A stretch of 52,991 bases of DNA, filler included, from Bilabrum cf. latius (GCA_965178125.1; 2 parts of 2 records of this genome joined end to end with filler, not necessarily neighbours in it), one strand, 5' to 3'. Counted from the whole stretch's first letter, positions 26,469-52,991 are shown. Made by a program: numbers and translations. The notes: generated from the letters alone by a model not told the origin.

Positions 26469-26568
26469 NNNNNNNNNNNNNNNNNNNNNNNNNNNNNNNN
26501 NNNNNNNNNNNNTTAATTAATTAANNNNNNNNNNNNNNNNNNNNNNNNNNNNNNNNNNNNNNNNNNNN
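26469..26568. other. Artificial contig-joining spacer
   Basis: Exactly 44 N + TTAATTAATTAA (stop codons in all six frames) + 44 N = 100 nt. Confidence 0.97.
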
Positions 26569-32370: not shown

Positions 32371-32688
32371 CGGTCCACCGCGGTGCCGGTGCGATGCGAT
32401 GACGATTACGGCGAGCCTTGCTTGGCGGTCCGGAGTGGGGGTTATGCCTCCATACCGGCCCTTCCGGCGGGCGACGGAGCATCCGAGGGCGATTCGCTCC
32501 CTCCCGTGGCTCCTCTTGAGGTTGGTCCAGGAGATGAGGGTGACGTTCACGGAGAAGGTGAAGGAGTTCAGATGGATGAGGTGATCGACGAGGGTGCCCC
32601 AGATGGTGGAGAGGTTGACTGGATCGGGCCCGAGGCCGATGGTCGACGGGACCTGTATAGTGTCTATGGGAGGGCCAACACGGTTGAG

Positions 32689-33560
32689 CACATGCTGTTC
32701 CATTTCCCGAAGAGCCCGTATTGCCGGATCTGTCAGGAGGCGGCTTATGCAGCGGAAGCCGAATCGTCGGCGGAAGGACTTGCCTGACCAGTACAAGGTG
32801 TTCGGTGACATGATCACCATGGATCACATCGACGCCAACGATCTGCGCAAGAACGGATTGCACGGCGAGAAGGACATGCTTATTGTGTTCGACCTGGCGA
32901 CGGCATGGATTGCAGCCTATCCTGTCATGAACAAGACCGCTGGGTGTGTTGTGTCGTCCTTGATCAACTTCCTTGGGCAAGAGAAGGCCAAGGCGTTCTA
33001 CTCCGATAAGGCCCCCGAGTTGCTGGCGGGCGTCGAGCAGTTGCCTGGTCCTCCCGTTGTTCACCGCACAAGTATACCTGGAATTCCCCAGACAAACGGG
33101 ATTGCGGAGAGTCGAGTGAAGTCCGTGATCCGGGGGGTGAGGACCAACCTGTTGCAGGCTGGGTTGCCCCATGTCTGGTGGCCGCACGCTGCACGGTGTT
33201 ATGCCGTTCACAGCAACGTTGCGGGACTCCAGGAGAACACCCCTATGCAAGCGCGGCACAAGGAGGCATTTAAGGGAGAAGTGATCCCTTCGGTGCCTTG
33301 GTGTTCGCGATGCCGAGTGGGATCAACCGGAAGCGGAACTTCAAGTTCGAGGCCGCGGCCCAGCCGGCCGTGTTCTTGGGATACGTCGTTCAGGATGGCG
33401 GGAAATGGTTCGGGGAGTATGTGTGTGCGTTCGCGTCTGACTTTGTCGATGCGTCGTTCTATTCTCGGGCCCGCTGGTCAGAGTGCCGGGTTCCCGTTCA
33501 TACTGGTCGAGAATTGCGCTTCAACTCGGCAGTGCCCGTTCAGTTCCCTTGTCGGGCTGC
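32689..33560 (+). CDS. pol: Integrase: HHCC zinc motif, DDE core, copia-type C-terminal domain
   Basis: HMLFHFPKSPYCRIC at 32689-32733; MDHID (D at 32822); FYSDKAPEL (D at 33005); PQTNGIAES (E at 33107); then KFEAAAQPAVFLGY. Confidence 0.92.
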
Positions 33561-34429
33561 CTACGAAAGGGACAACGAGACGGTGCTTGGGGTGAAGAAG
33601 TGCCTGCAGCGCGAACGTGACGCGGATGAAGGATGCGATGACGTTGGCGACCCCGATGGCTTGGGTGTCGATGGCGAGCCGGTCCCGGAACGGGAGCCAC
33701 TCCTTCGTGATGATGAGCGCCCTCCTTTCGAGGAGGATGTCGCCGACCGCGTTTGGGGAGGCCTCTCATGCGGATGAGCCGGAGGTTGTCGAGCCCTACC
33801 CGACGGAGGTGCACAAGGAGCTGCAGGAGTTGAAAGACGAGGTCGATCGTTTGGAGCACATGCTCGTGCAAATTCCTTCTGGGAGAAGGGTTCAGGGCAG
33901 AGATGTGGACCAATTTGGAAAGGTGATCATGAAGACTACCCGTCGCCTTACATCGAATCCGACGATTGGATGAGGATGAACGAGTCCACCAAGAGGTCGC
34001 TTATCGACCAGCACCAGCAGGACCTCGACATGCTGATGGGTAAGAAGGAGAGGTTGGCCATGTTGACTCACACGATTGCTGAGTACGAGCGACGGCACAC
34101 CTCCCCCGAGTTGTGTGGTGACAGGGTTACCGCAGGCTTCTCGGGTACGGGGGGTGCATCGTCCTCTTCGAGTTCTTCTGCTGTGCCTCTCTGCAGCGTG
34201 TGTGCGAGGTGCGGGTGTCAGACACCCGCGGCCTCCGGCGTGGTCGAGAGTCGCTCGGGGGGCGGATGTGAGACGTCCGCAGTCCCCGGGGGGCCCGACG
34301 TGTCCTCGGAGGACATCGCCATGCCGGTGGTTATTCCTGAGTCCATTCCCCATCGTGAGAGGAATCCCATGGTCGTTACTTCGTACTACGCCTGTACTGC
34401 TCGTGATGTGAACCACAAAGAGCGGGCAT

Positions 34430-35790
34430 GGAACGTCGAGGCGCAGAAAGCCTCAAGAAGGAGTGGGGTCGCCTTCGATCATGTGGAAATGGCGAAGGGT
34501 GTTGGGACGAGACCCGTCTCGAGAGTTCGATGATGTTCAGGCGGAGTATCGCGGGAAGAAGGTCACCGCTCATTTTGGCCGTGTCTTTGACATATGCGTC
34601 GAGAAGAACTTTCACCTGGAGAAATTGCCCAATGGAGACCTCCCTCCCGGGCGGAAATACAAGGGTCGAGCCGTCTACCAAGGAAACAACGTGAAGGATC
34701 AGGAGGGCAACTGGGCCATCTTTCAGGAGCTGGCCTCATGTCCCTCTACGATGGAGGCGTCCAAGATCGTTGACTTCTATTCCTTGTTGGAAGGTCATGT
34801 GGGCGAGCAGGCCGATGCCGACATGGCCTATACTCAGGCTCGTTTCATTGGACCTCCGACGTGGGTCGAGGTGCTTCGCGAGCAGTGGCCCGACGCGTGG
34901 GATGGTGTTGGGCGCCATCAGCCCCGCTTTCGGCGGCCGGTTTGTCGGCTTCTTCGGGCGTTGTACGGGCATCCCGATTCGGGGGGGCTTGTGGGAGAGA
35001 CATTGCGATTCTCATCTGAGGTCGATCGGGTTTCGTGAGATCGACCCGTGGCGCAGCGTCTACTTCCATGACAAATTACAGGTGCTCCTCGTTGTCTATG
35101 TCGACGACTTTAAGATGGCAGGGAAGAAATCTGCTCTCGACAAGTGCTGGGGTGAGATTAGACGGGAGTTGCGCATGGAGGATCCAGAGCCCTTCGGTCT
35201 CTTCTTGGGTTGTGCCCATGAGGTCGGGGAGGTGAAGTTGGATTCGTCCTTGCCCCCGGTGCGCACGATGACGTACAATGTCGAGGCTTACCTCCGCAAG
35301 AGCATTGACAAGTACTTGGCGGTCCTCCCTCCAGGATCCTCATTGAAGAAGGCTGCCACTCCGTTCCTGACAGTCGCGGACCCCTTTGATGTGGCGCGCC
35401 CTTCGGGCGTCGGTCACGACCCTCGGATGTGTCCGTGGTGTCGTGGTGTCTTCGACTCGTCGGAGTTTTTGCCTCCCTCGGGGAAAGTCAAGGGTAGTGG
35501 GTGTAAGACACCCGCGAAGAAATCGGGTGACGGGTGTGGGACGCCCGTGACGCTTGAGAAGCCCGCTCCCCGGGGGGTCTTGGCTGAAAAGGCAGCCAGC
35601 GTGCTGATGCAGATTCTGTACGCGGCGCGTTACGCCCGTTTCGATCTGCTCTGCGCAGTGTCCAAGTTGGCTCAGCGGATAGCCACTTGGGACGAAGATT
35701 GCGATCGCCAGATCTACCGCCTCATGTGTTACATACACTCGACGTTGAGTTGGCGGCAGGTCGGGTACGTTGGCGATCCCCTCGGGGTGG
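34430..35790 (+). CDS. pol: Copia-type reverse transcriptase (frameshifted)
   Basis: KYKGRAVYQGNNVKD, QADADMAYTQA, LLRALYGHPDSGGLW, LLVVYVDDF (YVDD at 35097-35108), FLGC and LMQILYAARYARFDL. Confidence 0.95.
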
Positions 35791-35794
35791 TCGC

Positions 35795-36270
35795 GTTCGA
35801 GCTTTATGCCGACGCTGACTTCGCCGGGGAATGGTTCTAAGAAGTCTACTGCGGGGCTCCACGTGTCCATAGCGGGACCACGCACGTTTATTATCCGGTC
35901 AACGGTCAGAGCAAAAGGCAGGAGTGCGTGAGTCATTCAACTCCGGAAGCGGAGATGGTGGCAGCTGACCTCGCAATTCGTAAAGGAGGGCCTGTCCTGC
36001 TTGGACTTGTGGGATGTCCTGTGTCCAGGTCACAATCCACTCATCTTCTGGGAAGATAACGAAGCATGATTCGTGTCTGTCGATCTGGTCGCAATCCAAC
36101 GATGAAGACTCTCAACCGCACGCATGCGGTGTCTATTGCGGCTATGAAGGAGGTGTTCGACAGGGAGGATATCGAGTTGCGGTACGTGCCTTCAGCACGT
36201 CAGGCCGCCGATATCCACACGAAAGCCTTTGACAATGGCGATAAATGGAAGGATGTATGTGTCTTGATTG
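35795..36270 (+). CDS. pol: Copia-type RNase H (frameshifted)
   Basis: YADADFAG, KSTAG, SKRQECVSHSTPEAE, WEDNEA and QAADIHTKAF. Confidence 0.93.
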
Positions 36271-36569
36271 GGATCTACGATATGCAAACGTTCGACGTTC
36301 AGGAAACCATCACATTTTGGGCCACTCCGCCTCCGTCCAAGGCGACGTTGGCTCAAGAGAATGAAGTTGCGGCTCCTGCAGGCTGTGGGCGTGAGTCGCC
36401 CGCGCCGTGGGTGCCGTCGCCCGGGGGCGTTGGGAGTGGGCGTTGGACGCCCGCGGTCCCTCCGCTCCTCCCCGTTCGCGGCGCGACTGTGTCCTCGTCC
36501 CATCCGGTACCCGGACGGGGGGGTTCTCCCACCCCTCGCGGGGGTTCTCCTGTCCGGGGGGGTTCCGTA

Positions 36570-36605
<36 letters not shown>
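36570..36605 (+). repeat. 36-nt poly-G run within four GGGGGTTC units at the RNase H / DNMT frame junction
   Basis: Read directly from the sequence. The RNase H frame enters the run and the DNMT frame is open from the run onward (+1 offset). Confidence 0.9.
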
Positions 36606-36607
<2 letters not shown>

Positions 36608-36675
36608 CCGCGCGCTTTCAATCTTTCGGTCCGACTGCTGACGTGCCGCCGAGGCCAGAATCCACCGCTCGGCGG

Positions 36676-37395
36676 GTCATTATAGAGGTGTGCTGCAGTC
36701 CGACCTCGTCGATCGGCCGTTTCGCTCCTCAGGGATGCCATGTGGAGCGCATCACGGCGGCCGACGACTTTGCGTCGCGGGAAGGTAGGAACAAGGTATC
36801 GCGTGCGCTCAAAAGATATCGTGATGTACCCGTCTTGGTGTGGGTCTCTTTTCCGTGTACCGGTGGTTCGATGTGGCAGTCGCACAACTGGTGTACGGGT
36901 GATGAGTCCACGCGGAAGTTGATTTCCCAGCATTGGAAGTTGTTCCGTCGCTTGTGGAAGTCGTTCGTCGAGACGATCTTTCCGTCCGTTGCGGCCGGTG
37001 AAGTCGAGCTTGCTTGGGAGTGGCCACTCTCGTGTGTATATTGGGGTTGGTCACGTCATGGGTCGTGTTACGACGGTTCGAAGCAGGTCCCGGTCAAAGA
37101 AGTGTTGTCGCAGTTACGATTGACGTCATTGGTTGTTCATGGGTGCGAAGTTGGGTTGGTGGCCCAGTCGGGTCGACGTTCCGGGGGATCTGTTCGTAAG
37201 TTATGGAGAATTGATGTCTCGTGCCCGGACTTGCTGGGGACGCTAGGTAAGATGATAGTTCCCGGAGCATCTGACCACTTGGTTTGCGTGCACGGTGTTT
37301 CGCATGGTCACGTCAAGTGTGAAGGGTCAGTGACTAGGTCAACGGAAATGTACCCGAGCGTTTGGCGGGGGCTATTCATCGTGGGTGGGAGCGCA
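36676..37395 (+). CDS. Cytosine-5 DNA methyltransferase-like domain C-terminal to RNase H
   Basis: Motifs in C5-MTase order: I-like VIIEVCCSPTSSIG; IV VWVSFPCTGGS (PC at 36853-36858); VI-like AWEWP; VIII-like HGCEVG..RKLWRI; X-like TEMYPSV/LAGAI. Confidence 0.7.
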
Positions 37396-37976
37396 TATCG
37401 AGGAGGACGGACAGGAAGAGGGGGAAGATCACGCATGGGGCGAGTCAGCGCGCGTGTGTCGCGCGTCAGGTCTGTCCCGACCCGCAGCCGCCAGGCCCGG
37501 GCCCTTCGCCCCCCCCCCCCCCTGTCGGCCCCCAGCGCGTGTCGTCGTGGGCCTTGTTCCTCGACGGCAGCTTTTCGACTCTCTCTTTCCTCGGTCGCGC
37601 GCTCCGGCGCGTGGCCGCGCCGTTTGGCGTTTCTTGGCCGCCTTTCTGCGGTCCTTCTTCTTCGCGTCTCCCCGACGCATCAGGCCTTTCGGCCTCTAGG
37701 GGGCGGTTGAAGACCAGTGGGAGTTGGACTCCCGTAAGGTCGGATACCCCTCCTCTCTTCCCTCAGCTATCCGGGGAGCCGAAGACTCGTGGGTGTTGGA
37801 CACCCGCAGGGTCGGAGGCCGCCTTGACACGCTTCCTCTTCGCGGGAGGTCGAGCGCCTTGCGATCGGGTCGTATCCCCGTCCCGCTCGGCATTCCCTCT
37901 TGCGCGGGTTGGCTTGGTTGAAGGGGCGTCGCTTGGTGGGCGTTGGACGCCCGCAGAGCCGGTCCCTCCTTCAACC

Positions 37977-40900
37977 ATGCAGTATGCGGCGGAGCCCCTG
38001 CCGGAGCCGCCGCCTCCCGGCGCGCCGCTTTTCCCTGACGCCGAGCCCACTGATGTGCCACCAGTGATCCCCGACGAATGGCGCATTTTCGGCGGGTGGG
38101 AAGTGCCGGCGCCTTCGCTGCCATGCGCGTGGTTGGACCCGAGCAACTTCAGCATTCCGGTGTACCTTCCCAAGCACCCGGAGAAGTGGTTGGTCGACAA
38201 CTACTTTCAGATGCGGTGGCAGAACGCGTTGCAATTCTGCGCGCAGCAGAACGACCCGTTGAAGGACATCCGCTTCCCTTTGGGAAACGCCACGTTCTCG
38301 GGTCTGCGCAGTTGGTTCAAGAAGTTCGCGGCCCAGTTCGAGCCGAGGAATCAGGATGAGGCAACGCGTATATATCCGCCCGATATCCATCTCAAGTTTT
38401 CGTTGATGAGGGAGTAAATGAAGTCGCCGCACGATATGTTCTGGCTTATGTTGGCAACGTATACGAAACGGCACAGGGAGAACAACCATAACCCTCCACC
38501 GCTTGTTGGGATGTTGAATCGGCGCGGACAGACGCCGTCGATGCCGGTCATGACGGAGGCAGAACTCTCGGGGGATGTCATCTTGTACGCCCTGAGAGGA
38601 CCGTACGGGGAGTTTCAGTCCCGTCCAAGGCCTGCCGAATTAATCACGACGCCATCGGCATCGGACTTCAGGCGCAATGACTCGTTGTTGTGCGTGCACT
38701 CGAATGTTGCGGACGATGGCATCATGATCCAGTTCCAGTCTGCGACGGCGTTGGACGCCGCCACACAGGCTGGAGCCAGGAAGAACATCATCTTCGACGC
38801 CCGTCCGGTTGGCTTCGCCATTGCGTGGCAGGCAGCCCCTCCGCCCAACCAGGACTGTCTCGTCCATTGGCGGGTCATCGGTTTGGTCGCCGGTGGCCAG
38901 GCTGATCGATATGGTGTCGAAGAAGGATGGGAGATCAAGGCCATCATGGTGCAGGAGCTTTACGGGATGAACCACGTGGCGACGCTCACGGCGTTTCAGG
39001 CCGCCGTGAGGGCGTTGCCCGAGCGGCTTCCCACGCCGCCTCCCACGCCGGCCACGGCCGCCATCACGGATGCGCCGGCGGCGGATGTTACGATGGAGCC
39101 GGCCGAGCCTTTTGCGGAGCCTCCGACGGATGGCGGAAGTGGGACTTCCGCGCGTCCGGAAGAGCAGCATGGGCAACAGGAGGCGGGCGCCGCGGGTTCG
39201 CAAGACCCTCTGCCGGAGCGCGGGAGTCGGACTCCCGCACCTCCGGCCGATGGGGTACGCACCGCGGAGCCGTATGACCCTTGGGCGGAAGAACAAGAGG
39301 AGCCGCAACCGACGTCGAGTGCCGCGAGCTCAAAGGCCCATCCGCCGGAGCGTGGAAGTAGGACTTCCGCCCCTCCGGTTAGTGGGACCCGCACATCGGA
39401 GCCATACGACCCTTGGACTATGGAGGTGGACGATGAGGGTCCGCCAGGGGCGCAGTCGCAGAGCAGCGGGAGTCGGACTCCCGCACGCTCTGCGGCCACG
39501 CCCGGGCCATATGTTCCTCCAGGACCGAAAGCCCCTCCAGCGCCTCTTCGACGAGACGCCGTTCCACATCCTCCTCGAGGAGCAGAGCCAAACGTACCAG
39601 ATCTTCCTCCTAGTCGTAAGGCACCTCCACCGGGTTTTGGGGGCACGCCGCCGGGGCCGCCGCCCCAGCGGCAAGTCCCGGGGGCACCCCCGGGGCCGCC
39701 GCCCCGGAGGGCGCCTCCCCCCATGCCCACTGTTGCCGAGGAGGGTACCCCACACCCTGGGGCGAGCGGAAGTCGGACTTCCGCGACGCCTTCGGGGCAT
39801 GGGATGCCTTCCCAGGCAGCGTCCAGCTCAGCCGCCCCGGGCGCAGCGTCCAGTGGCAGCGGAAGTTACGCTTCCGCAGCCGCCGGCGTGTTCACGGGGT
39901 GGTTTCGCAGAGCCGCATCAGCTTTGAGAGGATCGGCATCTTCTTCGACGACGGGCCAGGCCGCGGCCGACGCGTCTGCCGCCCCCTCGGATCGCGGAAG
40001 TTACGCTTCCGCACGTCCGGTGGAGGCGCGTTCGCCACGGACGCCGTACCACGCGGTGATTCCGTGGGCGCAGATCCGCGGTGGCAAACGCCCCGTCGAT
40101 TTCAGTCGGATTTACCCCGCCGGGCCGACAGGACAAGGGCTTGAAGTTGCTGGCGCGAATGGCCTGGGGCCCCCGCCATACAAGCCGACGACGCTTTGGG
40201 AGCTCATGTATCGGCAGGGCTACAATCGGGAGTCGACCGGAGGTGAGTTGAAGGTGAACGTTCCCTTGCAGGTGGCTTTGTGGAAGACGGGAGGACGTGA
40301 GGCGTTCCACTACAGTGCGGAGATGTCGGGTACCCCCATCCCGGGCCAGAGGCGCTGTGAGGCGTGGACGGATTACGTCCGCGAGCTCCTCATTGCCGCT
40401 CTGCGCCTCGGCGATAACGCGGTACGGGACGCGTATGTGCGTCAGCCGTTGACGAACGTCTTGTCCGACATCAGGGCATTGTACAACGCGCTAGGACGGG
40501 AGGGGATGTTGAACGTCCCCCGGATCAAACCGTCGCAGTTGAAGGCATTGTGTACAGACCCGTCGCAGGATGGGCTGCCAATGCCCCCTAGCACATGGGA
40601 TTCTCTGGAGGAGATCCATTTGTTTGGGGACTCGACCACGATCCTCACGACGAACAAGAGAGGGCAGCAGAAGCTTGGCACGTTCTTCACGTCGTGGATT
40701 GAGCATTTTCGGGCCGATGTGAGGGCTGGTATAGTCGATCACACCGTTGGCGGTTCGGATATTGTGGGTGTCCGAAAGACCGTCACGGCCCAGCTAGAGC
40801 GCATGAGGACAATGGCGCAAGGATCGGACGAAGAGATGCGTCGGCGAGGCTTGGGCGCCCGTGTCGGCCCCCGCGTTGGATGTATTGTCATCTATAACGG

Positions 40901-43900
40901 GAACGCCGTAAAGGCGGAGCATCATAAGGAGAAGCACAAGGATTACGACGAGATGATGCTCTTGGCCCGGGAACTCGCGGCATTTGACCGGCATCTGTTG
41001 GTGATAAGCCATCACCATGATTTGTTCACTTTGGACGAGTCGTGGGCGTACCAGATGTCCGGAATGCATGTCATCGCAGATGCCGCGGGTTGCGCCACGA
41101 CAAGTGGATGGCCGATGATCTCGGGGATGTTCCCGTTCCGAAAGGGGTACTTGCATTCCAACGGGACGTTGCCGTCGCAGCATGTGACGCTCAACGAGTT
41201 CGCGGTCCTCTGCAAGATCCTCCAATTGAGCATTCCGGTCTCGATGGCGGTGGATCTGCTCCGGGTGAAGGGAGTGTCAATTCGTGACGACCCGGAGTAG
41301 AGTACGCCTTTGATGAACGGTACTCGGTGCCCGTGTCCCTGACGCATAGTGCGGTCGTCGGAGCGGGAAAAAGGACGACCGATTTCATGCCGAACGTCCC
41401 TTCGGTGGTAGGCTACAAGGCGGACGCGTACATGGCGGTCGACCCCCGGACAGGCAGGCCAGGGATGAGTAGGCGGGAATACCTGGACGCGATCAAGGTC
41501 CAAGCCTTGACCCACTACTATGAGTTGATGGTCACACGCCTGCGCGACGACGACCCGGCGATGCTCCATTTGCATCAGCACCGGAAGGACTCAGTGAGGG
41601 CGGACGTGCGGCGCCGTTTCGCTGAGCAGCGGACGTGGGTCGTCCGTGAGTTCATCGAAATGGCCCGCAGGTTCCGCGAAACGCAGAAGGAGGAGGAGCA
41701 CACGATCAAGTACAAGCGCCGTTTGTTGAGGCGGGCGGCGAAGTATTTCCTCCTGACCGGCGAGGACGGGTTCTTCACCTTCCTCGACCCGGGCATGGCG
41801 AACTTTATGGATGTGGAAGAGTCCGCCGGTCCCCCCGAGTTGGATGACGATGAATCGTTCGACGAAGACGACATTCATGCAACCATCGATGCATGGACAA
41901 CTGGGGGGCAATGGGACATTACCGTGGCACCCGTCGACAAGATCAGGGAAGTGGTCGGCGAAATGGCGAAGGAGGAGATCCAGAGGCGAGTGGCTGCGGG
42001 GTTGATGGACGCGAGGGCTCAGGACCAGCCGGGTGATGGGAGTAGGACTCCCGTGTTGCCGGTTGATCCCGAGACCTCGGCCGCCTCCCCCGCGGCGCCC
42101 AAGGATGAGCCGATGGAGGAGACGCGTGGAGGTGAGACCTCCGCCGCGCCGTCCTCCGTCGGTCCGCCCACGTCTGAGGAGGTGCCGCGTGGGAGTCAGA
42201 CTCCCACCGCGGTTCTCCCCGATGGCTCTGGTGCCTCCGCGACGGCTCCGCGCGGGAGTGAGACTCCCGCTCCGGTTGCTGGTGCGGAGGCGCCTGGCGC
42301 GCCTGGGCCCTCAGGGCCCGGGCCGACCCCCACATCAGGTCCTGAGCCGAGCGAGATGCCCGAGGCCGGCGCTCTGGGTGAGGAGGAAGCGGCGCGCGGG
42401 AGCGGGACTCTCGCTGCGTCTGCGGAGTCCAAACCCATGGATGTCGACGAGGAGGCGCCAAGTGGTGAGAACCTGCTCTCGAACTTCATGCCGGCGCCTC
42501 CGATGTGCGCGCCGCCGACGTGCATCGTTTCCAAGGACGTCGTGGACGTTGGGACGTTCGTGTGTGCGCCCTTGGGACCGTTCGGTGCTATTGACTACCA
42601 CGGTCACCCGATCCGGCCCGACGGGGCCACAGGGTCCGGGGCCAGCGTGTTGCTCATCTCCCTTGACATGAAGCACTTCGTGTTCGGCTACACGAGGAAG
42701 TCCAGGAGCACGCAAGGTCAGTATTGGACGACTTTTGGTGGCAACCGGGACAGACAGGATGACGGGCCCGTGGCTGTGGCTATGCGGGAATTCTCGGAAG
42801 AACATGGGAAAGAGTTTCCCTTGTGGGCCCATCCATGCGTTGGATACGTTTGGTCGAGGCACCATGTCACATTCGTAGTCATGTGTGATCCAGATTACGC
42901 TTGTTGGACATTCCATAGGAACAGTGAAGTGACAGAGGTCGTGCGCGTTTGCATCTTGGAAAATGTGCAATGGTCGAAATTGGTGCGTAGGGCATGCCAG
43001 AGTGCCGTGATTGCCGTGGCCTCGTTCCTCAGCGGCTCCGACCCCAAGCACAGGGAGAAGGTGCAGAAGGCGTTGGAGTTGGACCCGTGCAGCGGGATCA
43101 GTGAGTGCAGGCGCAAGTACACCAAATTCACCATGCCCTTGATCTGGATGCCGAGAGAGGCGTTGTACGGTGCTGAGCCGAAAGGGATTGGTAGTCGGCC
43201 GCTTGGGCGAGGGAGTAAGACTCCCCCAGTACCCATCGCCGGCACCGCCCTGGTGCTCATGCACGGACAGAGGGCGAGGGTGGAGGTGTGGGACGAGCCG
43301 GTGCCCAAGTTGCACGGCAGCAAGAACAGCGAGTCGCTCTTCAAGAGTATGGAGCTCGGGTTGCAGATCGCGTTGCGTCAGCCTTGGCACCCGGTGAACT
43401 CGGTGTTCGGCCCGCTCATGTCCTCGAAGGCGGCATACCCCGACGTCGTGGAGCACCGTCCATGGGTACTCATGGATACAGTGTCAGAGTATCACGCACC
43501 ATCACGCGTCGATGGCCCATTTCGACATGTACGGCCATTATAGGGAGCATGCAATGGGGTGGTCTACTGAGGTTGACGATCGCACGCGCGTGCACCCGGA
43601 CTATATCCGTGACCGGAAGAAGGGTATCATTGGCCCGAACGTCATCGACCCCACGCGCGATGAGGACGTCGACCGCATCAAGGGCCTCCCTGGAGCGTTG
43701 GGCATTGAGCGAGACGTCGAGCTCGAGGGGCGCGGGAGTCGGACTCCCGCTGCCTCTTCGGGGCCCGGTGCTGCCGCGAGTGGAAGTCAGTCGTCCACGG
43801 ACGCGCCGCGGCCTCCGACTCTCACTCAGTCCACGATTCCCCCCGTCGCTGAGGAGGTCCCTGCCGGGAGCGGGAGTCAGACTCCCGCAGGCCCGGTGGA

Positions 43901-46900
43901 GGCCTCCAGTGAGGGTGACGTTGTGGAGCCGGAAGAGGAGGCGGACTATGGTGACGCATCCTCGGTCGACCCCATGACGGCTGCCCTTAAGGTCTCATTC
44001 AGGGGTACGTCGCACTTGGCCGAGAAGCAGGACCTCCTATCGTTTCCCTACGCCACCGAGGTGGAGTACATATATGGTGGTTGTAGGACGGGTGCGGAGA
44101 TGGCGGCGATCACCATGGCGGCGTATCTGAACCTCAATCGTGGGGGTTACGCCCCTGCTTGGGGGGACGACGCGTTCCGAATTGGTGGTTACATGCCGGG
44201 CACGCACGGGCTTTCGACGGTGCATCCGTCGGTCCCGGACGCCGAGAAGGAGGTGGCCGCGTGGCGGAAGACGCTCGAGAAGTGCGACGGCGTGCTGATT
44301 TTCTGCTGGGCTACCATGAGTGACGAATTGCTTGAGTTGTGGTACATGGCCCAACATGATTATAAGCGGCATACTAAGGTGATAGATGTGTCGGCAGGTC
44401 GAAAGCACATGGTCGGTACCATCTGCGAGTGGTGTAATGAGTACCATGTCAAACGTTTGTGGATTACCGGCGAAACAGAGGACGAACTTGCCCATCCGAT
44501 GTGGCGGCCGCTGGCATATTATCTCATCGACGAGTTCAAGCCCACTGCGGAGAACTACACGATTGAGCCGGACCGAGATTACGACCAGGACCGGACAACC
44601 TTGCCGAAGGAGCTCAACGATGTGATCCACAGGGGCGATGTCTTCTACTCCCTCGACAGGGACGAGGAGGCTCCGACGACCACGATGGGTGACGGCGGAG
44701 GTCAGACCTCCGCAGACCCCATCGAGGTCGATGAGGCGATGCCGGACGCGGAGGGCGAGGCTGGCGAGAGTGGGACTCTCGCGAAGGCCACGTTCCTGCG
44801 TCCGGACACCGCCAAGCGCGCCGGACTAGAGCTTGAAGAGGATCGAGGCGACGATTTCACCCAAGTGATCGATTCACTCCCACCAGAGCATCGCGAGCGC
44901 ATTCATCGCCTTCTTCAAGTCGAGGCCGCGTTGGGCGCCGACGTCATCGTCAGTCTTCATCGGGCCGATAGCCTTTCGGCTGCGGACGTGGCTTATGCCA
45001 GCTGGACGTCCGTGATCGCCCTGATGGAGAAGGAAGACGTGGAAGCTGCCGGGGAGTCGAAGATCTACTTGGAGAACTTGAGGAGAAAGGTTGATTCGAT
45101 CATGGAGGCTCGGTCTGAGCCCAAGGCAGCGTCATCTCACGGAGCGAGGGCCGCGATGGAGCAGCAGGACGATGAGGAAGAAGATCCGTCGCTCAAGGTG
45201 CCCGCGCCCGAGGAGTTGGCAGATGCCCAGTTCGCCACGGCCGGGCTCTCGTCATTGGCGGCGCAGGCCCGTATCATTGAGGCGGGCAAGGAGGCAGCTT
45301 CGTCGGACGTTGCGCAGATTGACAAGCCGTCCGACAAGACCACGGTCACGATCGAAGATCTGTCGGGCTGCGTTCTCCCCGGGAATCAGGCGAGATTGGA
45401 CCAGTACTTGCAGCAGAATCCCGAGGGGATGCCGCAACTGGAGCATGAGCCGCTCGACAAGAAGGCTGAGGAGCACGTGATCGGGGACGAAGACGAAGCT
45501 CCCGGACCGCCGGGGCCACCCACGGGCACCTTTGCCTCGGAGGTTCCGACCTACGCGGCGGGTGGCGTTGGGCCGGCGGTGTCGACCATGGGTTCGGAAG
45601 ACCCGACTTTCCCGGGAGGTATGGTGGGGCCTTCCCTCTCCACTGTGGGATCGGAGGTACTCCTTCTCCCGGGGCAGTTGGTCGGGAGTCGCTCCGGCCC
45701 TTATGTGCCGGAGTCGTCCGGCACTGAGGAGCCCGGGGCCCAGGCGGAGGCCGTCGTCGGCGGGCCCGGGCCTTCCAGCGGAAGTTTGACTTCCGCAGGA
45801 TTGCTTGGGACCCGATATAGCGACTCGGTTCCGCCTGGCGCGACGGAGATGCTCGGAGAGGAGCGTGGTGGAGGTAGGACCTCCGCAGCGCACCTCGAAG
45901 AGGTCGCCGGTGAGTTGGAGCAGCAGGATGTCGCGATGGACGTGGATGAAGACCTCTCCCCGAAGGATGCGACGTCCAAGTCAATGGCTAAGGCTCTGAA
46001 CAAAATCGGCCCGCGTTTCAAGGGCACCGCCGAGGGTGCGGCTCGCCGTACGTTGTCGATGACTGACAGGTCTACGCGCGTCGATCCGGTATCAGCCTGG
46101 CACAAACTCACCTCTCAGCATGATCAGTCAGGAGAGGCTTTGCCCATCTTTCCGCCGGACGTCATAGCCAGGATTCTGCGCCAACCCCCCGCTGCGGGCG
46201 CGGCGTCTTCCTACTCCCAGGCGGTCCGCGGAGGTCAGACCTCCGCAGTGGCTGCCGCGGCCGTCCCCGTTGGTGGGAGTCGGACTCCCGCAGACGTGGA
46301 AGTCAAGGAGGAGGAGGATGACGAGCCTACGATTGATCAGCAGGAGTTTGCGCGGCGTATCGCTGTTGGGGCTGCCGCGCATCCGCAGATCGACTTGTCG
46401 AAGGAGATGTCCAGGAAGGAGAAGAGACAGGTGGCAAGGGCGAACGTTCTGGCGTTGAGGGCAAGAAGAGATGAAGAGATTGCAGTAGCCGCCCAGATCC
46501 TGCAAGAACAGCAGTCCCAGGCGTCGATCCAAGGGGATGCGAGGGTTGTCGTGTCGGGCGTTGGACGCCCGAGTGACGAGCAATACCTCCATATCCCGGA
46601 GATCAGCGCTCAGGGCAGCTGGGCGCAGAGCGTCGATGAGCTCAAGGAGTTGTTGGCGGACTGGTGCGGCGACGACGTGGGCGCGAGGGATCCGGCCTGC
46701 AAGGTCATTACTCCAGAGATGAGGAAGCTCCGAAACGGACAGCGCATTGTTCCGGATACCCTCAAGCTGAAGCCCCTCACGAGCCTGATGGTTGTGACGG
46801 GCAACCGTGGTGGCTCGTTCGTGACCGAGTATTTTGCCAACTATCGGCAAGAGGAGAGTGATCTGCGTAAGCACATCAACCAGGCGAGGCATCACGCGAG

Positions 46901-49900
46901 GAACCCGAACACGAGGTTCTCGAATGCTTACAACGACATCTCCAGGACGCTCGGGGCGTGGTTGCGCCACACAGGCCTCAACCATGTCAGTGGCCCTATC
47001 ACCCGCGATCAGCCCGGTTTGTCAATGGACACCGGGGGATGGGCGCCGTGGGGCACAGTGGTCAGGCGGCTGCACCAGCTGCTGGCGGATGGCTACAACA
47101 CAGCAGGATGCAAGAGAATGACCACGTCGGCCGTCCGTTTCGTGATCACGGAGAACGTCGTCTTGGCGACCATCCTCGCGTTGGATGTGAAGGGTCGGTT
47201 CCAATTGGCCTTCTGCAAGGATCCGCACAACGAAATCGAGATCCGGGGAGTCAGAGCGGTCCAGGGGCACAGTTTGATGTTCATCGATGAGGCGCGTTTG
47301 GCCTATTGCCCCGCTGGTGCCGCGGCGTTGAAGCAGACGATCAAGGAGCTCTGGCATGGCACCAAGCAGGACAGCCTGATGGGCATTTTGGCCAACGGAT
47401 TGATCCCCGGAGGAAGCGATGGTCGTATCAGAAGGAATTGCGTCCACATCTCACCGGTTCATCCCTGGATGGAAGGAGCTGAGCACACCAACCGCTCCAA
47501 CTCCGACTGCTTTGTTCGCATTGACGTGGACAAGTTGTACCAGCGCGTCCCAGTGCAGCACATCTTTCAGTCGGCGAATGGGACGGTGTTGGTTCGGGAC
47601 GCGGTTCCGGTGTCATGCTTCAAGGAGATCGTTTACCAGAACGGCCCCGGGGATTACCAGGTTGTGTGGAGCGCCTCCCGTGTCGGACAGGCGCCAAGTG
47701 TGGTCGTCCCGTCCGCCGGGGGCATGCGCGATCACTCCGGTGGTGCGGTTCAAGCCGCCCGTCGGTGGGCCAGCGGGAGTCGGACTCCCGCAGGGTCTGC
47801 TGCGGGCGGCGGTGGGAGTCAGACACCCATGCAGGAACCGCCTACCGTGGGGATCTCGCTCGACGTGGACTTGGACATTGCAGGTCGCGTTACCTTTCAT
47901 TGCCCTGTGTGTGAGAGTGTTTGCTTCGCAGGGGCGTGTTTTTGTTTCTCGTGTCGATCCAGGTTCTACTATGAGGACGAGGCCCACAAGCTCCGGCCGA
48001 TGGCGGCAGGCGTCGCGGTGCCGAGGGCCAGCCCGGAGACGCTGGCGCTGCTCAAGGAGGCCCGAGGAGAGCTAGGTCTTGGTCGAGGACGATCCGCGGG
48101 AAGCAACATGTGGCGTGACATCAAGCGTGGTAAAAGGTTAGGAGAGGAATGGCGTGGCCCAGGTTGGCAGAACCCGGAAGCGATAGAACGCATTCAAAAT
48201 GCAGCAAAGAAGGGCGGTGTGCCATTTACGTGGTCTGCGGGACGTTGCGACCCTTGGACTCCGACGAGTGAGCATTCGCGGCCGGACTCGCAGATCACCC
48301 TCACGCCTCGTGACTTCGTGTACGCGGTGTTGAGTATGATGGGCGGCCCATACACAGACGACCCGGATTCGCTGACCGGTGACGCCGCGGTGAAGCGCAC
48401 GAATGCCGTCACGTTCATCAACATCGTGAGTGTGTTGGGCACCGATGTGCTTTGGGAGATCATGCGCGACGAGACGATCTCGGCCGACGCAGTGTTTTTG
48501 GGTATTTACAATACCATTAGAGATATTCCCCAGATTGAGGAGAGTGTCATTCAAGTATTGGGGAATACCGTCGACCGCGAGGACTTTGCGTTTGCGCTGA
48601 ACTTCACACGCCGCGAGGTCGCCTAGTGGGGCGCCATTGTTGACCCTCAGAAGGGTCATCTTGCCCGCGACGCGCCGGTTGGGACCAGCGAGAGCAAGGC
48701 AGCGGCTCTGGCCAAGGGCCATGCCATCACCACTGCCGTTGGGAAGGCGAGACGGGCGACGCCGCCTCCCAAGCCGGCGGGCCCGACGACGGCCAAGGCC
48801 GCGAAGAGGAGTGGGAGTAGGACTTCCATGACGCCTCCCGCGCCGAAGGCCCGTCCGTCCGGCTCGCCGGGTCCAGGCGCTGGCCCAAAGGGGCAAGGCA
48901 AAGGTGGCGGGGGTAAGGCTCCCACCGCGCGCGACGCAACCTGAGAAGGGGCCGGGACGCGGAAGTCAGACTTCCGCAGCGCCCGCTAAGCCCATCTCTC
49001 AGCCCGCGCACAAGGGTAAGAGTACCGGTCGCGGAGGTAAGGCCTCCGTCGAGCCGGACCCTATCCCGCCATGGAGAGCCCAAAGCGGCAAGTCGATCGG
49101 TCGCGGGAGTCAGGCTCCCGTGAGGCCGGAAGCGTCCTTCACTTTGGCGAAAGGGGGCGGAAAGGCCTCGGAGCGTGGAGGTAGGACCTCCACACCTCCG
49201 ACGGCTCAGCCGCTCCCCCACTGCCAGCAAGTCTGGTGGAACGGGTAGCGGGAGCGGCACCCCTCCACCACCGCCCTGGGCCTCGAGCCGGGGCGGACCA
49301 CCGCAACGCGTGTGGGTCCCAAAGGGGTCCGCAGCGGCACCGGCCTCTGGCACGATGCCGCCTCCTCCGCCCACGACAACGATACCGTTTTCGAGTCCTC
49401 CGGCTGGCCAGACAGCATCTACGGGAACGCCCGCAAAGTCTAAGGCTTCAACACCTCCGCCGTTGAGAGGTTCGGTTGCTCGCGACCCGTTGATCACTCA
49501 GGACCCTCCGTCGCAATCGCACTTACCTGAGACCCGTGGAAGTCAGACTTCCACAAGGCCCAGGCAAGACGAGGAGACGGGTAGAGCTAGGGAGTCTAGG
49601 GCGCAGGAGCGCAGGTCTTCGCCGAGATCGCGATCGGGAACTGGAGCTACACGAAGCGAGGCGAGACCACCTTCGGCACCGACTGCGAGTTCACGGGGTG
49701 AAGAGCGGCGCCATGAGTCTTCAGGGCAATCTAGGCCCAGTGAGCATCGACCACGTTCACAACATGGTGAATCGTCGACGAGTCGCCAGCCTCGCCGTAC
49801 CCTCGCGACTCGGGCGATCGTCGTTCTTCCCGAGACGACGAACCCCGTCGAGGGCGACGCCGATCTCCTACTCCAAGGGAATCGGAGCGTCGCCGCCGCC

Positions 49901-50460
49901 GATCTCCCTCTCCACGGGAATCTGGCGGCACGCGCCGGCGCCGTGACGAGGACCCTCGGGAGCGTGGAAGTCGGACTTCCGCTGCTCCGCAGGGTGATCG
50001 TCCGGCGCCGAGCGCGGCGTCTTGGCTGGATCGAGGTCGCGACTCTCCCATGCGCGGTCCAGGCCGGGGTGCCAGCGCCCCTTCCGTGGCAAAGGCGCCA
50101 CCGCCGCCTCCGCCTCCAGAGCGAGCGGCATCCGCCTCTTCGCGTCACTCTCACGATTCGCCCTATCCAAGGGAACCTCGTCCGCGTCGAGACGCCGATT
50201 CTCCGGCCGACGACCGGACCCGATCTCGGAGGGCGTCGGGGGCAACGCAGGGCGGTGGGCGTCAGACGCACGCAGCTCCGCGGGACCCGCCTACGGCCTC
50301 AGAGCGACCCGAGGATCGCGGGAGTAGGACTTCCGCACGTCCTCAGGGGAGTTCGACTGTTGCCGGGGACCAGGGCCCTTCCCGCGCGCGCGATAGCACA
50401 CGCCATGGCGATCCTTCGTCGACGTCGCGTCGCTGGGGCGCTGAACGCCGCGGCGGCTGA
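37977..50460 (+). CDS. Giant cargo coding region (~4,100 codons) broken by two in-frame stops (38415, 48624) and several frameshifts
   Basis: Consecutive ORFs 37977-38417, 38418-41300, 41327-43543 and 43512-48626, then 48627-50460 in pieces. Protein-like sequence continues across every junction, and the G-S-x-T-P hairpin peptide stays in phase. The final TGA is at 50458-50460. Confidence 0.75.
38781..39025 (+). CDS. PDZ-like domain
   Basis: IIFDARPVGFAI (GLGF-loop equivalent) ... WRVIGLVAGGQADRYGVEEGWEIKAI, matching V..V..G..A...G...GD.I..I. Confidence 0.65.
40610..41230 (+). CDS. SGNH/GDSL hydrolase-like domain
   Basis: Block I IHLFGDS (GDS at 40626-40634), block II HTVGGSDI, block III IVIYNGNA, block V KGYLH (H at 41154). 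The usual Asp of DxxH is not evident. Confidence 0.5.
42635..43030 (+). CDS. Nudix hydrolase domain
   Basis: ASVLLIS..FVFG..WTTFGGNRDRQDDGPVAVAMREFSEEHG = G-x6-D-x7-RE-x2-EE-x-G at 42740-42808, against the canonical GX5EX7REUXEEXGU. NSEVTEV follows downstream. Confidence 0.85.
44058..44535 (+). CDS. SLOG-superfamily domain (putative MoCo-carrier / circularly permuted YpsA type)
   Basis: IYGGCRTGAEMAA..GGYAP..RKTLEKCDGVLIF..KVIDV..ICEW...VKRLWITGETE parallels the family pattern ISGGQTGADRAA..GGW.P..RT..NV.DSDGTLI..KP.L.ID..I..W...LNVAGPRES, recalled from memory. Confidence 0.72.
46935..47635 (+). CDS. kptA: Tpt1/KptA NAD+-dependent RNA 2'-phosphotransferase domain
   Basis: ISRTLGAWLRH, GLSMDTGGW, DVKGRFQL, VRAVQGHS, LWHGT..ILANGL.PG, RNCVHIS, VRID and QSANGTVLVRDAVPVSCF. 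The catalytic Arg-His-Arg-Arg tetrad is present. Confidence 0.93.
47901..47954 (+). CDS. Zinc ribbon after Tpt1
   Basis: CPVC-x10-CFSC. Confidence 0.65.
49560..50460 (+). CDS. Arg/Ser-rich disordered C-terminal tail of the cargo protein
   Basis: ERRSSPRSRS, RRGRRRSPTPRESERRRRRSPSPRES ... RRWGAERRGG-stop. Confidence 0.55.
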
Positions 50461-51003
50461 CGGCGATGTCATTATTCCGCTGTTGGCCGCCCAGGTGCAG
50501 CCGTTCGCCGTCGTCGGCGGGCACACCTTTTGCGTAGCGAGGAGGACTACCCAGACACGGAGTTTTACATCGATTGGTGATCGGTGGGATGGGGGGCTCT
50601 GCCTGGTGTCGTTGAGCCCAGGCATCCCCGTGCATTGTATAGGCTGAGCCGTATGCTCAGCGTTCTCCCGTGCTTGCGGTGTGCGTGTCCCCTCTTGTCT
50701 TGTGGTGCGCGGCGCAGTCGATCAGGTCTTTTTAGAGGCGAGGGCTTGCCGGCTTGGCGCTCGTCATGGCCGCCCGGGCAGATCGGTGGAAGCAGTCTTT
50801 CCCGCCGACTGTCCGGGCAGGCCGCCTCCCGAAGTGCCCTCGTCTCTCCCCGGGACACTACCCGGACCGGCATTAGTTCTGGCCGCCCGGCTAGCCATGT
50901 GGAGCCTTGATGCCCACCTCTGGCCCGGGCGTGCCGCCGTCTGGAGTAGCTGTTCCCGGGGGCTGCCCGAGACCCCGCAGCGGACTTGCTCGGGGCGGGC
51001 AGC

Positions 51004-51013
51004 GGGGAGGGGA
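51004..51013 (+). promoter_or_regulatory. Polypurine tract (plus-strand primer)
   Basis: GGGGAGGGGA immediately followed by TG, ~550 nt after the last stop codon. Confidence 0.6.
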
Positions 51014-51564
51014 TGACTCCATTCCCCCTCCCCGGGTCGGTCGCGCTCGCGCGTGTGTGGTGTATAGCGCTCGTCTTCGTCGCCTTCTATTTTGATGGAG
51101 GTCGGTAGTCGGGGCACCCTCGTCTTTTTGGCATGCTCTGTGCCTTGCCGTGAGAGTTGGACTCCCACCGCGGGCCAGACGTGCCAACGGGGGGTGTTTC
51201 TCGTTTGCCCCGATAACCGGACAGTATTCCTCCAAGTAGGTTGCACCTAGGACAGTAGCATGCATGCGCATAGCGGATCCGTAGTCCTTTTGGTCTTTTC
51301 GGAAAACAGTGTTCCGCGCATCGCACACTCGCTCGCGCTCGTCGCGTCGTGGGCCCTGTTCCCTGGCCCTTTGCCCGGCTACGGCCGGGCCAGTCCCGGG
51401 GCCCAGGGCACCACGTGCCCCAGGGCTGTGAGACTATCCAAGGGTGGTCCTGGAGGTTTGGGTCCAGGATCCCCTGCCCCGGACCAGAGTGGTCCGGGCT
51501 ACAGTGAGCCCCGGCCCCAGGGTGGCCGGGCACCTACCCATTCGCAGGGGTCTTCCCATTCGCA
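51014..51564 (+). mobile_element. Candidate LTR (551 bp, TG...CA) shared between the two tandem elements
   Basis: Begins TG directly after the PPT and ends CA directly before the PBS. No second LTR copy is in the window to confirm the boundaries. Confidence 0.6.
51278..51293 (+). promoter_or_regulatory. Dinoflagellate spliced-leader-like motif inside the LTR
   Basis: TCCGTAGTCCTTTTGG matches DinoSL DCCGTAGCCATTTTGG(CTCAAG) at 14 of 16 positions, ungapped. Confidence 0.45.
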
Positions 51565-51578
51565 GGTTATCAGCCGTA
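51565..51578 (+). promoter_or_regulatory. Primer-binding site complementary to the anticodon arm of tRNA-Ile (half-tRNA priming)
   Basis: GGTTATCAGCCGTA; its reverse complement UACGG-CU-GAU-AA-CC has anticodon stem-loop architecture. The geometry matches the copia half-tRNAiMet PBS GGTTATGGGCCCAG. It abuts CA and lies 18 nt before the gag ATG. Confidence 0.7.
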
Positions 51579-51596
51579 TAGCCTGTTCCCAGGGCG

Positions 51597-52991
51597 ATGG
51601 AGCCCCGTGGCTCCACTCCGCCCATTCGAGACGGTGAAGAGGCGTCCCTTGACGACCTCACGCTGTCATCCCTCACGCCCCCATCTCCGTTACCGCTCCG
51701 CGAGGGAGCGGAACCCCAGGGCGGTGGGGGCCAAGCCTCTGCAGTCCTTGGGCCCATGGACGGTGTCGTCGTCCCTAGCTGTGGGGGCCAAGCCCCCGCC
51801 GAGCTAGGGCAGGGACGACAGGCCGAGCGCCGCGGGGCGCAGCACTTCCTCATCCATTCGGAGGGTGAGGAAGTCTCCGCAGGAGCCGAGCCGGACCAGG
51901 AGCGGCCCCCTTCCTTGGGTCGTTCCCGATCTCCGTCCGCGATGCCTACGGCGTCCGACCGTTCGTCGCCTGTCAGTCGTCGTTCTCGCGCTGTCGGTCG
52001 TTCATCTCGTTGCAGGTTTCCGGCGGAAAGTAGGGACGCGCGCTCGGGCGGTAGCCGTCCCGACCCCCCCCCCCCCCTCCCCCCCGCCGCCGCCATGGGC
52101 GGCCGTCGTTGCCGTCGACTCCGCGTTCAACGAGACCAAGTGCTACTCGCTCGCCGAGTCAGGCTCCCTTGGATGTTTCTGTGCCGGAACAGCCGCTGAG
52201 CGGATGGGGTTGTGGGAGCCAAGCTTCCGCTTGCCCCCCCGCTCGGTCATCTGCTCTGGACGGAGGCATCCACACAGGTGATGGCGATGGCCAAGTGGTG
52301 ATAGCGACTGATAGTCATGCCCAAAACTTCCTCGAAAAATCCGATGATGATGTAGCGACGGGGTGCGACCTCGAGACGCAGCTCGAGGACATCATGCGGG
52401 AGACGTTCGACGCCGCGAGCGCCGAGCTCGCCGCTCACGGCCCGACTCCGCGTGCGCACAGTGCATCGCGACGCACCTCCCCGAAGGGCATGCCGGTCCG
52501 TGGGTGCCAAGCATCCGCTAGACTGGCTGCCCCGAGGGGAGATGGGCCGCCCGCGCGCAACGTTGCCGAATCGTCGTCGTCATCATTACCGCCGGGCGCA
52601 TTCCCTCATCGGTTATCTCGTCCGGAGAGTTGCGCGGATCCGGCGACTCCGCCGGCCGCGCCGCCGCCGGCGCATGGGCATCTCGAGTACGACGGTAACG
52701 ACAAATCGGTATTTTCCGGAGTAATGAATGTGGATTTCCCGTTCCAGGCTGGCTCAAACCCCGGTGTTGGCCCTGGTGGGGGTCATACCCCCGCAGATGG
52801 TGCCGATACCGGGGGTCACATGGGCCTGCCCCATGGTCCTTTTGACAGTGTGGCTGAGGCGAGCGGGCGCCAAGTGCCCGCATCGCCAAATGGGCACGAC
52901 TCAGCTTCTGATTCTACCATGGGGAACGGGAAAGACTCCGAAGGCAGGAAGCGCGTGAAGATCCATGGGGAGGGGCTGGGGGAGCCGATGC
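51597..52991 (+). mobile_element. gag: 5' gag region of a second, diverged copy of the element (runs off the window)
   Basis: ATG at 51597. 51630-52991 is collinear with 26575-27970, sharing SLDDLTLSSLTPP, RGAQHFLIHSEGEEVSAG.EPDQERPP, CCATGGGGAACGGGA and GGAAGCGCGTGAAGAT. Confidence 0.9.

Follow-up and report, generated by a model that had tools for sequence, protein, structure and literature searches.

The parallel replacement of a repeated RNA hairpin tip is described here for a giant copia-like retroelement in a 52,991-nucleotide (nt) stretch of DNA from Bilabrum cf. latius (GCA_965178125.1), referred to below as the window. Two diverged copies of the element are present, and both carry short hairpins on their coding strand. 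At 4-5 homologous sites the closing base pair and loop of the hairpin (together, the tip) have changed in parallel and in a non-neutral manner, with the stems still paired. The window is composed of two contigs joined at 26469-26568 by a linker in which TTAATTAATTAA stands between two 44-N blocks. The linker has stops in all frames and looks like an artificial contig joiner, so that the two halves of the window are not necessarily neighbours in the genome. The hairpins and both element copies sit in the second contig, where the copies are separated by a 1.1-kilobase (kb) spacer:

26569 to about 50460, plus strand: copy 1, a long coding element (giant copia-like retroelement), with its 5' end cut by the contig start
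about 51582 to 52991, plus strand: copy 2, a diverged paralogue with about 66% nt identity to copy 1 outside the hairpins, running off the end of the window

Six hairpins, each with a stem of eight base pairs (bp) and a 3-nt loop, were present in copy 2. Their homology to hairpins of copy 1 was taken from a pairwise alignment of the two copies and was rechecked:

51724-51742, plus strand: copy-2 hairpin GTGGGGGC-CAA-GCCTCTGC, with three G.U pairs; the homologous copy-1 site (26672-26690) has two A.C mismatches and is degenerate
51781-51799, plus strand: copy-2 hairpin GTGGGGGC-CAA-GCCCCCGC, with a lower stem of 8 bp; homologue 26729 (GT-CGG-AC)
52212-52230, plus strand: copy-2 hairpin GTGGGAGC-CAA-GCTTCCGC; homologue 27145 (GT-TGG-AC)
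52500-52518, plus strand: copy-2 hairpin GTGGGTGC-CAA-GCATCCGC; homologue 27433 (GT-TGG-AC)
52776-52794, plus strand: copy-2 hairpin GTGGGGGT-CAT-ACCCCCGC, the exception (GT-CAT-AC); homologue 27708 (GT-GAT-GC)
52863-52881, plus strand: copy-2 hairpin GCGGGCGC-CAA-GTGCCCGC; homologue 27795 (GC-GGG-GC)
26729-27813, plus strand: the copy-1 homologues of the copy-2 hairpins (26729, 27145, 27433, 27708 and 27795)

The sequence GC-CAA-GC was found at the tip of 5/6 copy-2 hairpins, and 48/48 stem positions were paired (38 Watson-Crick, 10 G.U). An original prediction, made from the sequence alone, had stated that the hairpins at 51724, 51781, 52212, 52500 and 52863 read GC-CAA-G with intact stems, and rereading of the sequence agreed with this. 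The alignment likewise bore out the copy-1 homologues that it had listed (GT-CGG-AC, GT-TGG-AC, GT-TGG-AC and GC-GGG-GC). The hairpin at 52776 had been singled out as exceptional (GT-CAT-AC), which is correct; its homologue at 27708, with a GAT loop and a U.G closing pair, is itself outside the NNG class of loops, and the two hairpins both belong to a second loop class. Because the homologue of the exception lies outside the NNG class, all of the well-formed NNG-class sites (26729, 27145, 27433 and 27795; 4/4) have switched. The C-CAA-G tip was also present at 51724, opposite the degenerate copy-1 site at 26672.

When the copies were compared, only 7/30 positions (23%) of the closing pairs and loops were identical, against 63/84 (75%) in the stems without the closing pair, 223/360 in the 30 nt on each side of the hairpins, and 815/1239 (66%) in the sequence elsewhere. 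The chance of a tip identity of 7/30 or less was 2.5e-6 (binomial), and C-CAA-G tips, found in 5/6 hairpins of copy 2, were found in 0/53 of copy 1 (Fisher p = 1.2e-6). As the tip is far less identical than the stems or the sequence elsewhere, it has been replaced and not eroded. The claim that one tip appears at several separate sites with pairing kept thus stands, and more strongly than first put. The copy-2 stems differ among themselves at positions 5 and 6, and since they differ between sites, homogenisation by gene conversion is unlikely. Four kinds of change are needed for the switch, which is beyond any single mutational process.

The hairpins belong to a family with a 19-nt consensus, GYGGRNGT-NNG-ACNYCCRC, most members of which lie in copy 1. 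A copy-1-type hairpin was also present in the spacer:

26729-50336, all plus strand: copy-1 hairpin array, 47 perfect 8-bp/3-nt members, 53 by relaxed criteria
51150-51168, plus strand: copy-1-type hairpin GTGAGAGT-TGG-ACTCCCAC in the spacer, with a GT-TGG-AC tip, 7/8 paired, about 430 nt upstream of the first open reading frame (ORF) of copy 2

A strict scan found 46 members in copy 1, five in copy 2 (51724 being missed solely through the 3'-end filter) and none in contig 1. By the relaxed criteria there were 53 in copy 1, one in the spacer, six in copy 2 and, as a control, six on the plus strand of contig 1, so that about 6 of the 53 relaxed copy-1 members could be chance matches. Generic plus-strand hairpins of 8 bp and 3 nt numbered 65 in copy 1 compared with 13.5 ± 3.2 in 100 dinucleotide shuffles, and 6 compared with 0.8 ± 1.0 in copy 2; contig 1 was at background (14, with 10.7 ± 3.1 when shuffled). 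In a less circular test, sites were chosen by the 5' arm alone and the partner was sought after 3 nt. A perfect partner was present for 42/88 arms in copy 1 and for 6/6 in copy 2, and 0/52 arms on the plus strand of contig 1 had 7/8 pairs or more. The tip was U-NNG-A in 37/53 copy-1 hairpins, nine had a U.G closing pair, and a second class had an NAY loop. Up to seven hairpins cluster within 900 nt. A tandem-repeat scan found no tandem repeat that includes hairpins, and they are therefore not a recent tandem array. Rfam gave no match at the gathering score over the whole window, and a lax Rfam search of 38900-40100 returned sub-threshold microRNA look-alikes only.

Two further hairpins of copy 1 deviate from the family. 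That at 31158-31176 (GCGGAGCT-TAG-GGCTCCGT) is of the family type, and its loop codon in the usual phase is a stop, which is probably due to decay of copy 1. The hairpin at 46554-46572 (TCGGGCGT-TGG-ACGCCCGA) has the inner stem and tip of the family, with the outer two pairs differing.

Several lines of evidence establish that the hairpins are real, conserved structures of the plus-strand RNA, with compensatory changes. Among 55 sites chosen on Watson-Crick pairs and the signature only, as an unbiased selection, the non-Watson-Crick pairs were 33 G.U, 4 A.C and 15 others (p = 1e-6); given this asymmetry, the constraint is not that of a double-stranded DNA site or of a minus-strand structure. 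For the folding, lower-stem, covariation and flank tests, a set of 53 sites was used, from which 31158 (loop TAG) was left out and to which 44140 and 44764 were added. In these 53 hairpins, double changes occurred at 7/8 stem pairs (63 cells, compared with 11.8 ± 6 in shuffles); the set was selected for perfect pairing and its value of 100% paired is by construction. Stem position 6, the first base of a Ser/Gly/Cys/Arg codon (NGT), covaries with position 14, which is the third, synonymous base in a Thr codon (ACN), in the combinations A-U, G-C, U-A and C-G. Between the copies, compensatory double changes were seen at the 27433/52500 pair (A-U to U-A at stem position 6/14) and the 26729/51781 pair (A-U to G-C). 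The original prediction had held that pairing is preserved in the hairpins, and both the compensatory changes and the G.U to A.C asymmetry agree with it.

The structural unit is larger than had been described, as each hairpin tops a longer stem-loop. Minimum free energy (MFE) folds of 49-nt and 55-nt contexts kept the apical stem in 53/53 cases, and enclosed it in 12.1 pairs compared with 8.8 when the flanks were shuffled (Wilcoxon p = 4.5e-9). A lower stem of at least 5 bp was present for 66% of hairpins and for 13.6% of 2000 random places. Between lower and upper stem, the 5' strand has 0-1 unpaired nt and the 3' strand usually has 1-3, and the sequence of the lower stem varies between sites and between copies with its pairing kept. 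The 49-nt contexts fold at -21 to -34 kcal/mol, and the stems are stable and GC-rich. When windows around the copy-1 and copy-2 homologues were folded (n=11), z-scores were between -3.0 and -6.1 in nine, the other two being 51709 (z = -1.4) and 26714 (z = -1.0). Among 40 listed places at which the window differs from nearly all other copies of the element, three were inside hairpins and one in a lower stem, and in 4/4 of these the pair is better in the other copies.

In the three long ORFs, 21/22 hairpins start at codon position 2, and with this fixed phase the loop is exactly one codon. The peptide encoded in copy 1 is x-G-[S/G/C/R]-X-T-[P/S]-A, and that in copy 2 is G-x-Q-A-[P/S]-A. The sole hairpin out of phase is 46554 (peptide SGVGRP; phase derived by hand from the ORF start). 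Hydrophobic residues made up 0.18 of the 25 amino acids (aa) on each side of the hairpins compared with 0.27 in the long ORFs (p = 2e-9). The hairpins occupy the junctions of recognisable modules, namely the stretch ahead of the integrase-like part, the one that separates this part from reverse transcriptase (RT) and the one that separates RT from the RNase H-like part; in the 3' extension they occur repeatedly. It would appear that linkers are the only places, and the phase giving small, flexible residues the only phase, in which so strict an RNA element is tolerated.

The hairpins are carried by what appears to be a divergent Ty1/copia-like retroelement, at least 24 kb long and present in very high copy number. 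The following features were identified in copy 1:

30737-30790, plus strand: CCCH zinc finger, C-x8-C-x5-C-x3-H (zf-CCCH_12, E=0.014, below cut-off)
32585-33595, plus strand: integrase-like ORF, upstream of the RT ORF (weak match to integrase chains of the Protein Data Bank, E=0.04; motif by eye)
34695-35840, plus strand: RT ORF, probably copia-type (RVT_2); hairpins 35497 and 35530 fall in its linker ahead of the RNase H-like part
43398-48626, plus strand: 3'-extension ORF of 1742 aa, with Tpt1/KptA and weak SLOG matches and 10 hairpins in phase

The match of the RT ORF of the window to RVT_2 was weak (E=0.026, 14.6 bits, cut-off 31.6). The ORF had 3749 relatives in a representative library, of which three long ones matched RVT_2 at 26.9-32.1 bits, one of them above the Pfam cut-off. 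These long relatives are polyproteins of 2000-3000 aa, and in one of the relatives (P0047) integrase motifs, identified by eye, precede the RT. The protease DTG and RNase H motifs were also identified by eye only. A motif scan detected one CCCH finger but no CCHC zinc knuckle; the finger has Lys/Gly/Arg-rich flanks and lies upstream of the protease-like DTG and the integrase-like part, in a nucleocapsid-like position. Gag-like features were a weak lead only (score 0.80). About 14 kb of further coding sequence follows the RNase H-like part, including an RNA 2'-phosphotransferase domain of the Tpt1/KptA family at residues 1180-1400 of the 1742-aa ORF (E = 1.5e-12). At residues 225-361 there is also a SLOG match, which is weak and of the circularly permuted form. 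In a literature that was not exhaustively searched, no such hairpin array and no Tpt1-bearing copia element were found.

In four public runs (X1, X2, X4 and X6), tens of thousands of short contigs were placed on the element over 33000-52991 at 80-99% identity. One run alone gave 93488 contigs with identities from <90% to >99%, in continuous divergence. From this abundance and spread of identity, the element represents a family of very high copy number in which diverged members are numerous. Among the sequencing runs listed as containing the element there was no RNA run. Copy 1 shows slight decay: several frameshifts, at places where small indels set other copies apart, and a single in-frame stop (48624-48626) interrupt its reading frame, and the stop is read through in two related proteins (P0002 and P0003). 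No long terminal repeats were found when the 1.1-kb spacer was compared with the whole window by blastn (self match only); as copy 1 lacks its 5' end at the contig start, this does not establish that they are absent.

Other features of the window were noted alongside. The same -1 change of reading frame is needed in both copies, at about 27000-27060 in copy 1 and at 52055-52110 in copy 2. The frame upstream of it shows only synonymous differences around 26780-26880, and the shift site of copy 2 contains a long C run. A programmed frameshift, a short intron and an assembly problem are all possible causes. A long C-rich run lies near the start of copy 2 (52063-52090), and a run of 36 G follows the RNase H-like part on the coding strand (36570-36605). 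Contig 1 (1-26468) carries a different repeat family, whose units are spaced by about 3.7 kb within 1.3-6.3 kb and 21-26.4 kb, together with two minus-strand ORFs of 474 aa each; no Pfam match and no hairpin of the family were found in it.

Relatives of the element were examined for the hairpin and its peptide. Protein searches for DNA relatives yielded none in viral contigs, none in genome contigs, and a single locus in metagenome contigs, namely L001, which is 1.67 kb long and has a protein identity of about 71%. Two hairpins lie at the corresponding position of L001, with the tip U-CAG-G where the copy-1 homologues have U-CGG-A and U-CAG-A, and a compensatory change from G-C to A-U in the stem. 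U-CAG-G could plausibly be a step on the way from U-NNG-A to C-CAA-G. In the protein database, the 1742-aa ORF matched P0002 and P0003 only, and the ORF of copy 2 had one weak match, P0006. The motif peptides are kept in P0002, P0003 and P0007. Among the best 150 of the 3749 RT relatives, at least two motif peptides were present in P0007 (98% identical) only, which indicates that the hairpin, as a peptide, is confined to a narrow lineage. Matches to the hairpin pattern in genome and viral contigs were single sites, one per locus and with no cluster, in unrelated bacteria and phages, and were taken as chance; the two entries for one locus (L175) were a single palindromic site matched on both strands. 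A distant family member, P0107 (an RT relative of 1922 aa), has a different peptide, SGHAP, four times in its 3' extension. This was considered as an equivalent hairpin and rejected, as an 8-bp stem is not encodable there by codon reasoning, which was done without the DNA. Other lineages may each have a repeated linker motif of their own.

Taken together, we propose that the hairpins would act in cis in the sense (genomic or messenger) RNA of the element. The unit is made up of four parts, namely a variable lower stem, a small asymmetric internal loop, an 8-bp upper stem (GYGGRNG plus the closing base) and the 3-nt loop, and lies in linkers between domains, in the only codon phase whose peptide is harmless, G-[S/G/C/R]-X-T/A-[P/S]-A. 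Specificity would reside in the tip, which a trans-acting factor would read many times over the length of the RNA (at least 24 kb). The likeliest candidate would be a nucleic-acid-binding protein encoded by the element, for example the CCCH nucleocapsid-like segment, and its role may be the multi-site capture or packaging of the element's own RNA. The replacement of U-NNG-A by C-CAA-G at every NNG-class site seen in the copy-2 lineage, with pairing kept, might then represent a change of specificity. A predicted code, in which proteins would recognise the tip in a lineage-specific manner, is plausible. As a whole, the reading of cis-acting hairpins with a tip that is read by an element protein and switched in the copy-2 lineage is held tentatively, at slightly less than an even chance. 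A bolder form of it would have about fifty in-frame hairpins serving as an RNA address code for the element's own CCCH protein, with tip and reader rewritten between sister lineages so that cross-packaging is stopped, and with the shared phase permitting frame-safe recombination at hairpins; this form is doubtful.

A number of observations count against a tip read by an element protein. The tip of copy 1 is loose (any NNG, nine U.G closing pairs and the second, NAY class), a hairpin of the copy-1 type (51150) lies just upstream of copy 2, and the sample of copy 2 consists of six sites in 1.4 kb, with the Gag region beyond the end of the window. Among the related proteins, the loop residue is followed by T, A or S within the single protein P0002, and P0006 has C-K-A where copy 2 has C-Q-A and copy 1 has S-W-T. 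Moreover, retroviral packaging signals are normally near the 5' end and not genome-wide. The conserved stem sequence and the fixed phase are compatible with an additional role at the peptide level, for which room should be left. The original prediction had spoken of a subfamily-specific recognition code, which would co-evolve with an RNA-binding protein of the element and allow self to be told from non-self, and it is supported in part. The parallel change of the tip and the CCCH finger encoded in copy 1 speak for the code; the loose copy-1 tip, the mixed P0002 and the hairpin at 51150 speak against a strict rule of one code per subfamily.

The same structural evidence would serve equally if the hairpins were read by a host factor, for instance one acting in export, localisation, stability, RNA modification or silencing, the switch then being an adaptation to it or an escape from it. 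No feature of the window links the tip with a protein of the element, and the very high copy number would place the element under host pressure. Two tip lineages side by side in one genome are, however, easier to explain with separate cognate readers, and a host reader is considered rather unlikely. It is also improbable, although less so than the peptide and translation accounts discussed below, that the switch reflects no selected code but recurrent hot-spot mutation or editing at equivalent loop positions, or a thermodynamic trade-off between closing pair and loop. The copy-1 loops CGG, TGG and CAG are indeed related by CpG transitions, the U-CAG-G tip of L001 is a possible intermediate, and transitions dominate the differences among copies. 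Yet up to five tip positions and more than one type of substitution (U to C and A to G in the closing pair, and the loop bases) are involved at each of the 4-5 sites, and every site ends at the identical CAA where relaxed constraint would scatter the loops. Similarly improbable is a role of the hairpins as places where reverse transcription pauses or switches template, or where recombination occurs, their shared phase keeping the frame and permitting domain shuffling. The single phase throughout, the position of the hairpins at module boundaries and the widely varying 3' extensions among the RT relatives would fit this role, but it leaves the tip switch unexplained. Long-range joints at hairpins were considered as signs of recombination and rejected, since their shorter side of 20-23 letters, about one hairpin, reflects cross-alignment between hairpins.

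If the peptide G-S-x-T-P-A were the functional unit (protease cleavage, phosphorylation or a linker module) and pairing secondary, the fixed phase of 21/22 hairpins, the sites between domains, where polyprotein cleavage is expected, and the retention of the peptides in relatives would all follow. This account is nonetheless very improbable: the synonymous third position of Thr follows its stem partner, Gly is encoded only by GGR, matching YCC, the G.U to A.C asymmetry is without peptide meaning, and the loop residue is free (R, Q, W, G, E, K or Y). Further, clusters of up to seven in 900 nt are not needed for cleavage sites, and the lower stems pair outside the motif. In a further account the stem-loops slow ribosomes at domain boundaries and so help the co-translational folding of a very long polyprotein, with the tip irrelevant. 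The linker sites and the stable, GC-rich stems would suit this function, but the stem sequence, the exact 8 bp, the fixed phase and the directed, parallel change of the tip are left unexplained, and it too seems very improbable. The peptide-only and mutation-only readings are the most clearly disfavoured.

If the tip is a recognition code, the element would be a natural example, and an unusually clean one, of a retroelement with RNA-protein recognition at many sites, with dozens of near-identical sites and a tip that differs between lineages. Specificity switching and the competition of co-resident lineages would be testable with short RNAs and one small protein domain. The array also illustrates how coding sequence can accommodate a strict RNA structure, through the use of linkers and of one phase that gives a bland peptide. 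The element is odd in its own right: copia-like, at least 24 kb long and present in very high copy number, it has an RNA 2'-phosphotransferase domain in its polyprotein.

Parallels to parts of this arrangement exist among cellular and mobile elements. The decay elements recognised by Roquin and Regnase have a stem of 5-8 bp and a 3-nt loop that are recognised by shape and tip, and CCCH-finger proteins are among their readers. Unlike the present hairpins, they have pyrimidine-purine-pyrimidine loops and bring about the decay of host mRNAs, in whose 3' untranslated regions they occur; ROQ was not among the domain matches in the window. In long interspersed nuclear elements (LINEs) of the stringent type, such as UnaL2 of the eel, the element's own protein recognises a hairpin tip in a lineage-specific manner that separates self from other elements. 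These differ from the present array in being non-LTR elements with a single, 3'-terminal hairpin and the RT as reader. Rickettsia palindromic elements (RPEs) and mitochondrial GC clusters or byps are palindromic elements tolerated inside ORFs at permissive places. They are mobile insertions of 27-150 nt in variable phases, whereas the present sites are orthologous across about 34% divergence and co-varying. In the human immunodeficiency virus HIV-1, the SL2 and SL3 hairpins of a retroelement RNA expose a G that is read by the zinc-finger nucleocapsid. By analogy, nucleocapsid zinc fingers on G-containing retroviral loops may be regarded as the nearest retroelement analogue.

The psi (packaging) signals of retroviruses and Ty elements are few, near the 5' end and paired with a CCHC finger, in contrast to the CCCH finger and the genome-wide, in-frame repeats seen here. 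Ty1 Gag-RNA binding and retroviral genome packaging are the subject of published work (PMC8396678, PMC5035971). By analogy, the closest described concept would be that of the dispersed packaging signals of single-stranded RNA viruses. For MS2, satellite tobacco necrosis virus (STNV), parechovirus and the pregenomic RNA of hepatitis B virus (HBV pgRNA), many stem-loops in coding sequence with a short tip motif are described, for which repeated binding of the cognate coat protein is proposed (PMC6281560, PMC5431903, PMC7612645). The present element resembles these in its multiple stem-loops with a common tip motif along the RNA. It differs from them in the conserved stem sequence, the exact 8 bp and 3 nt, the single codon phase and the retroelement carrier.

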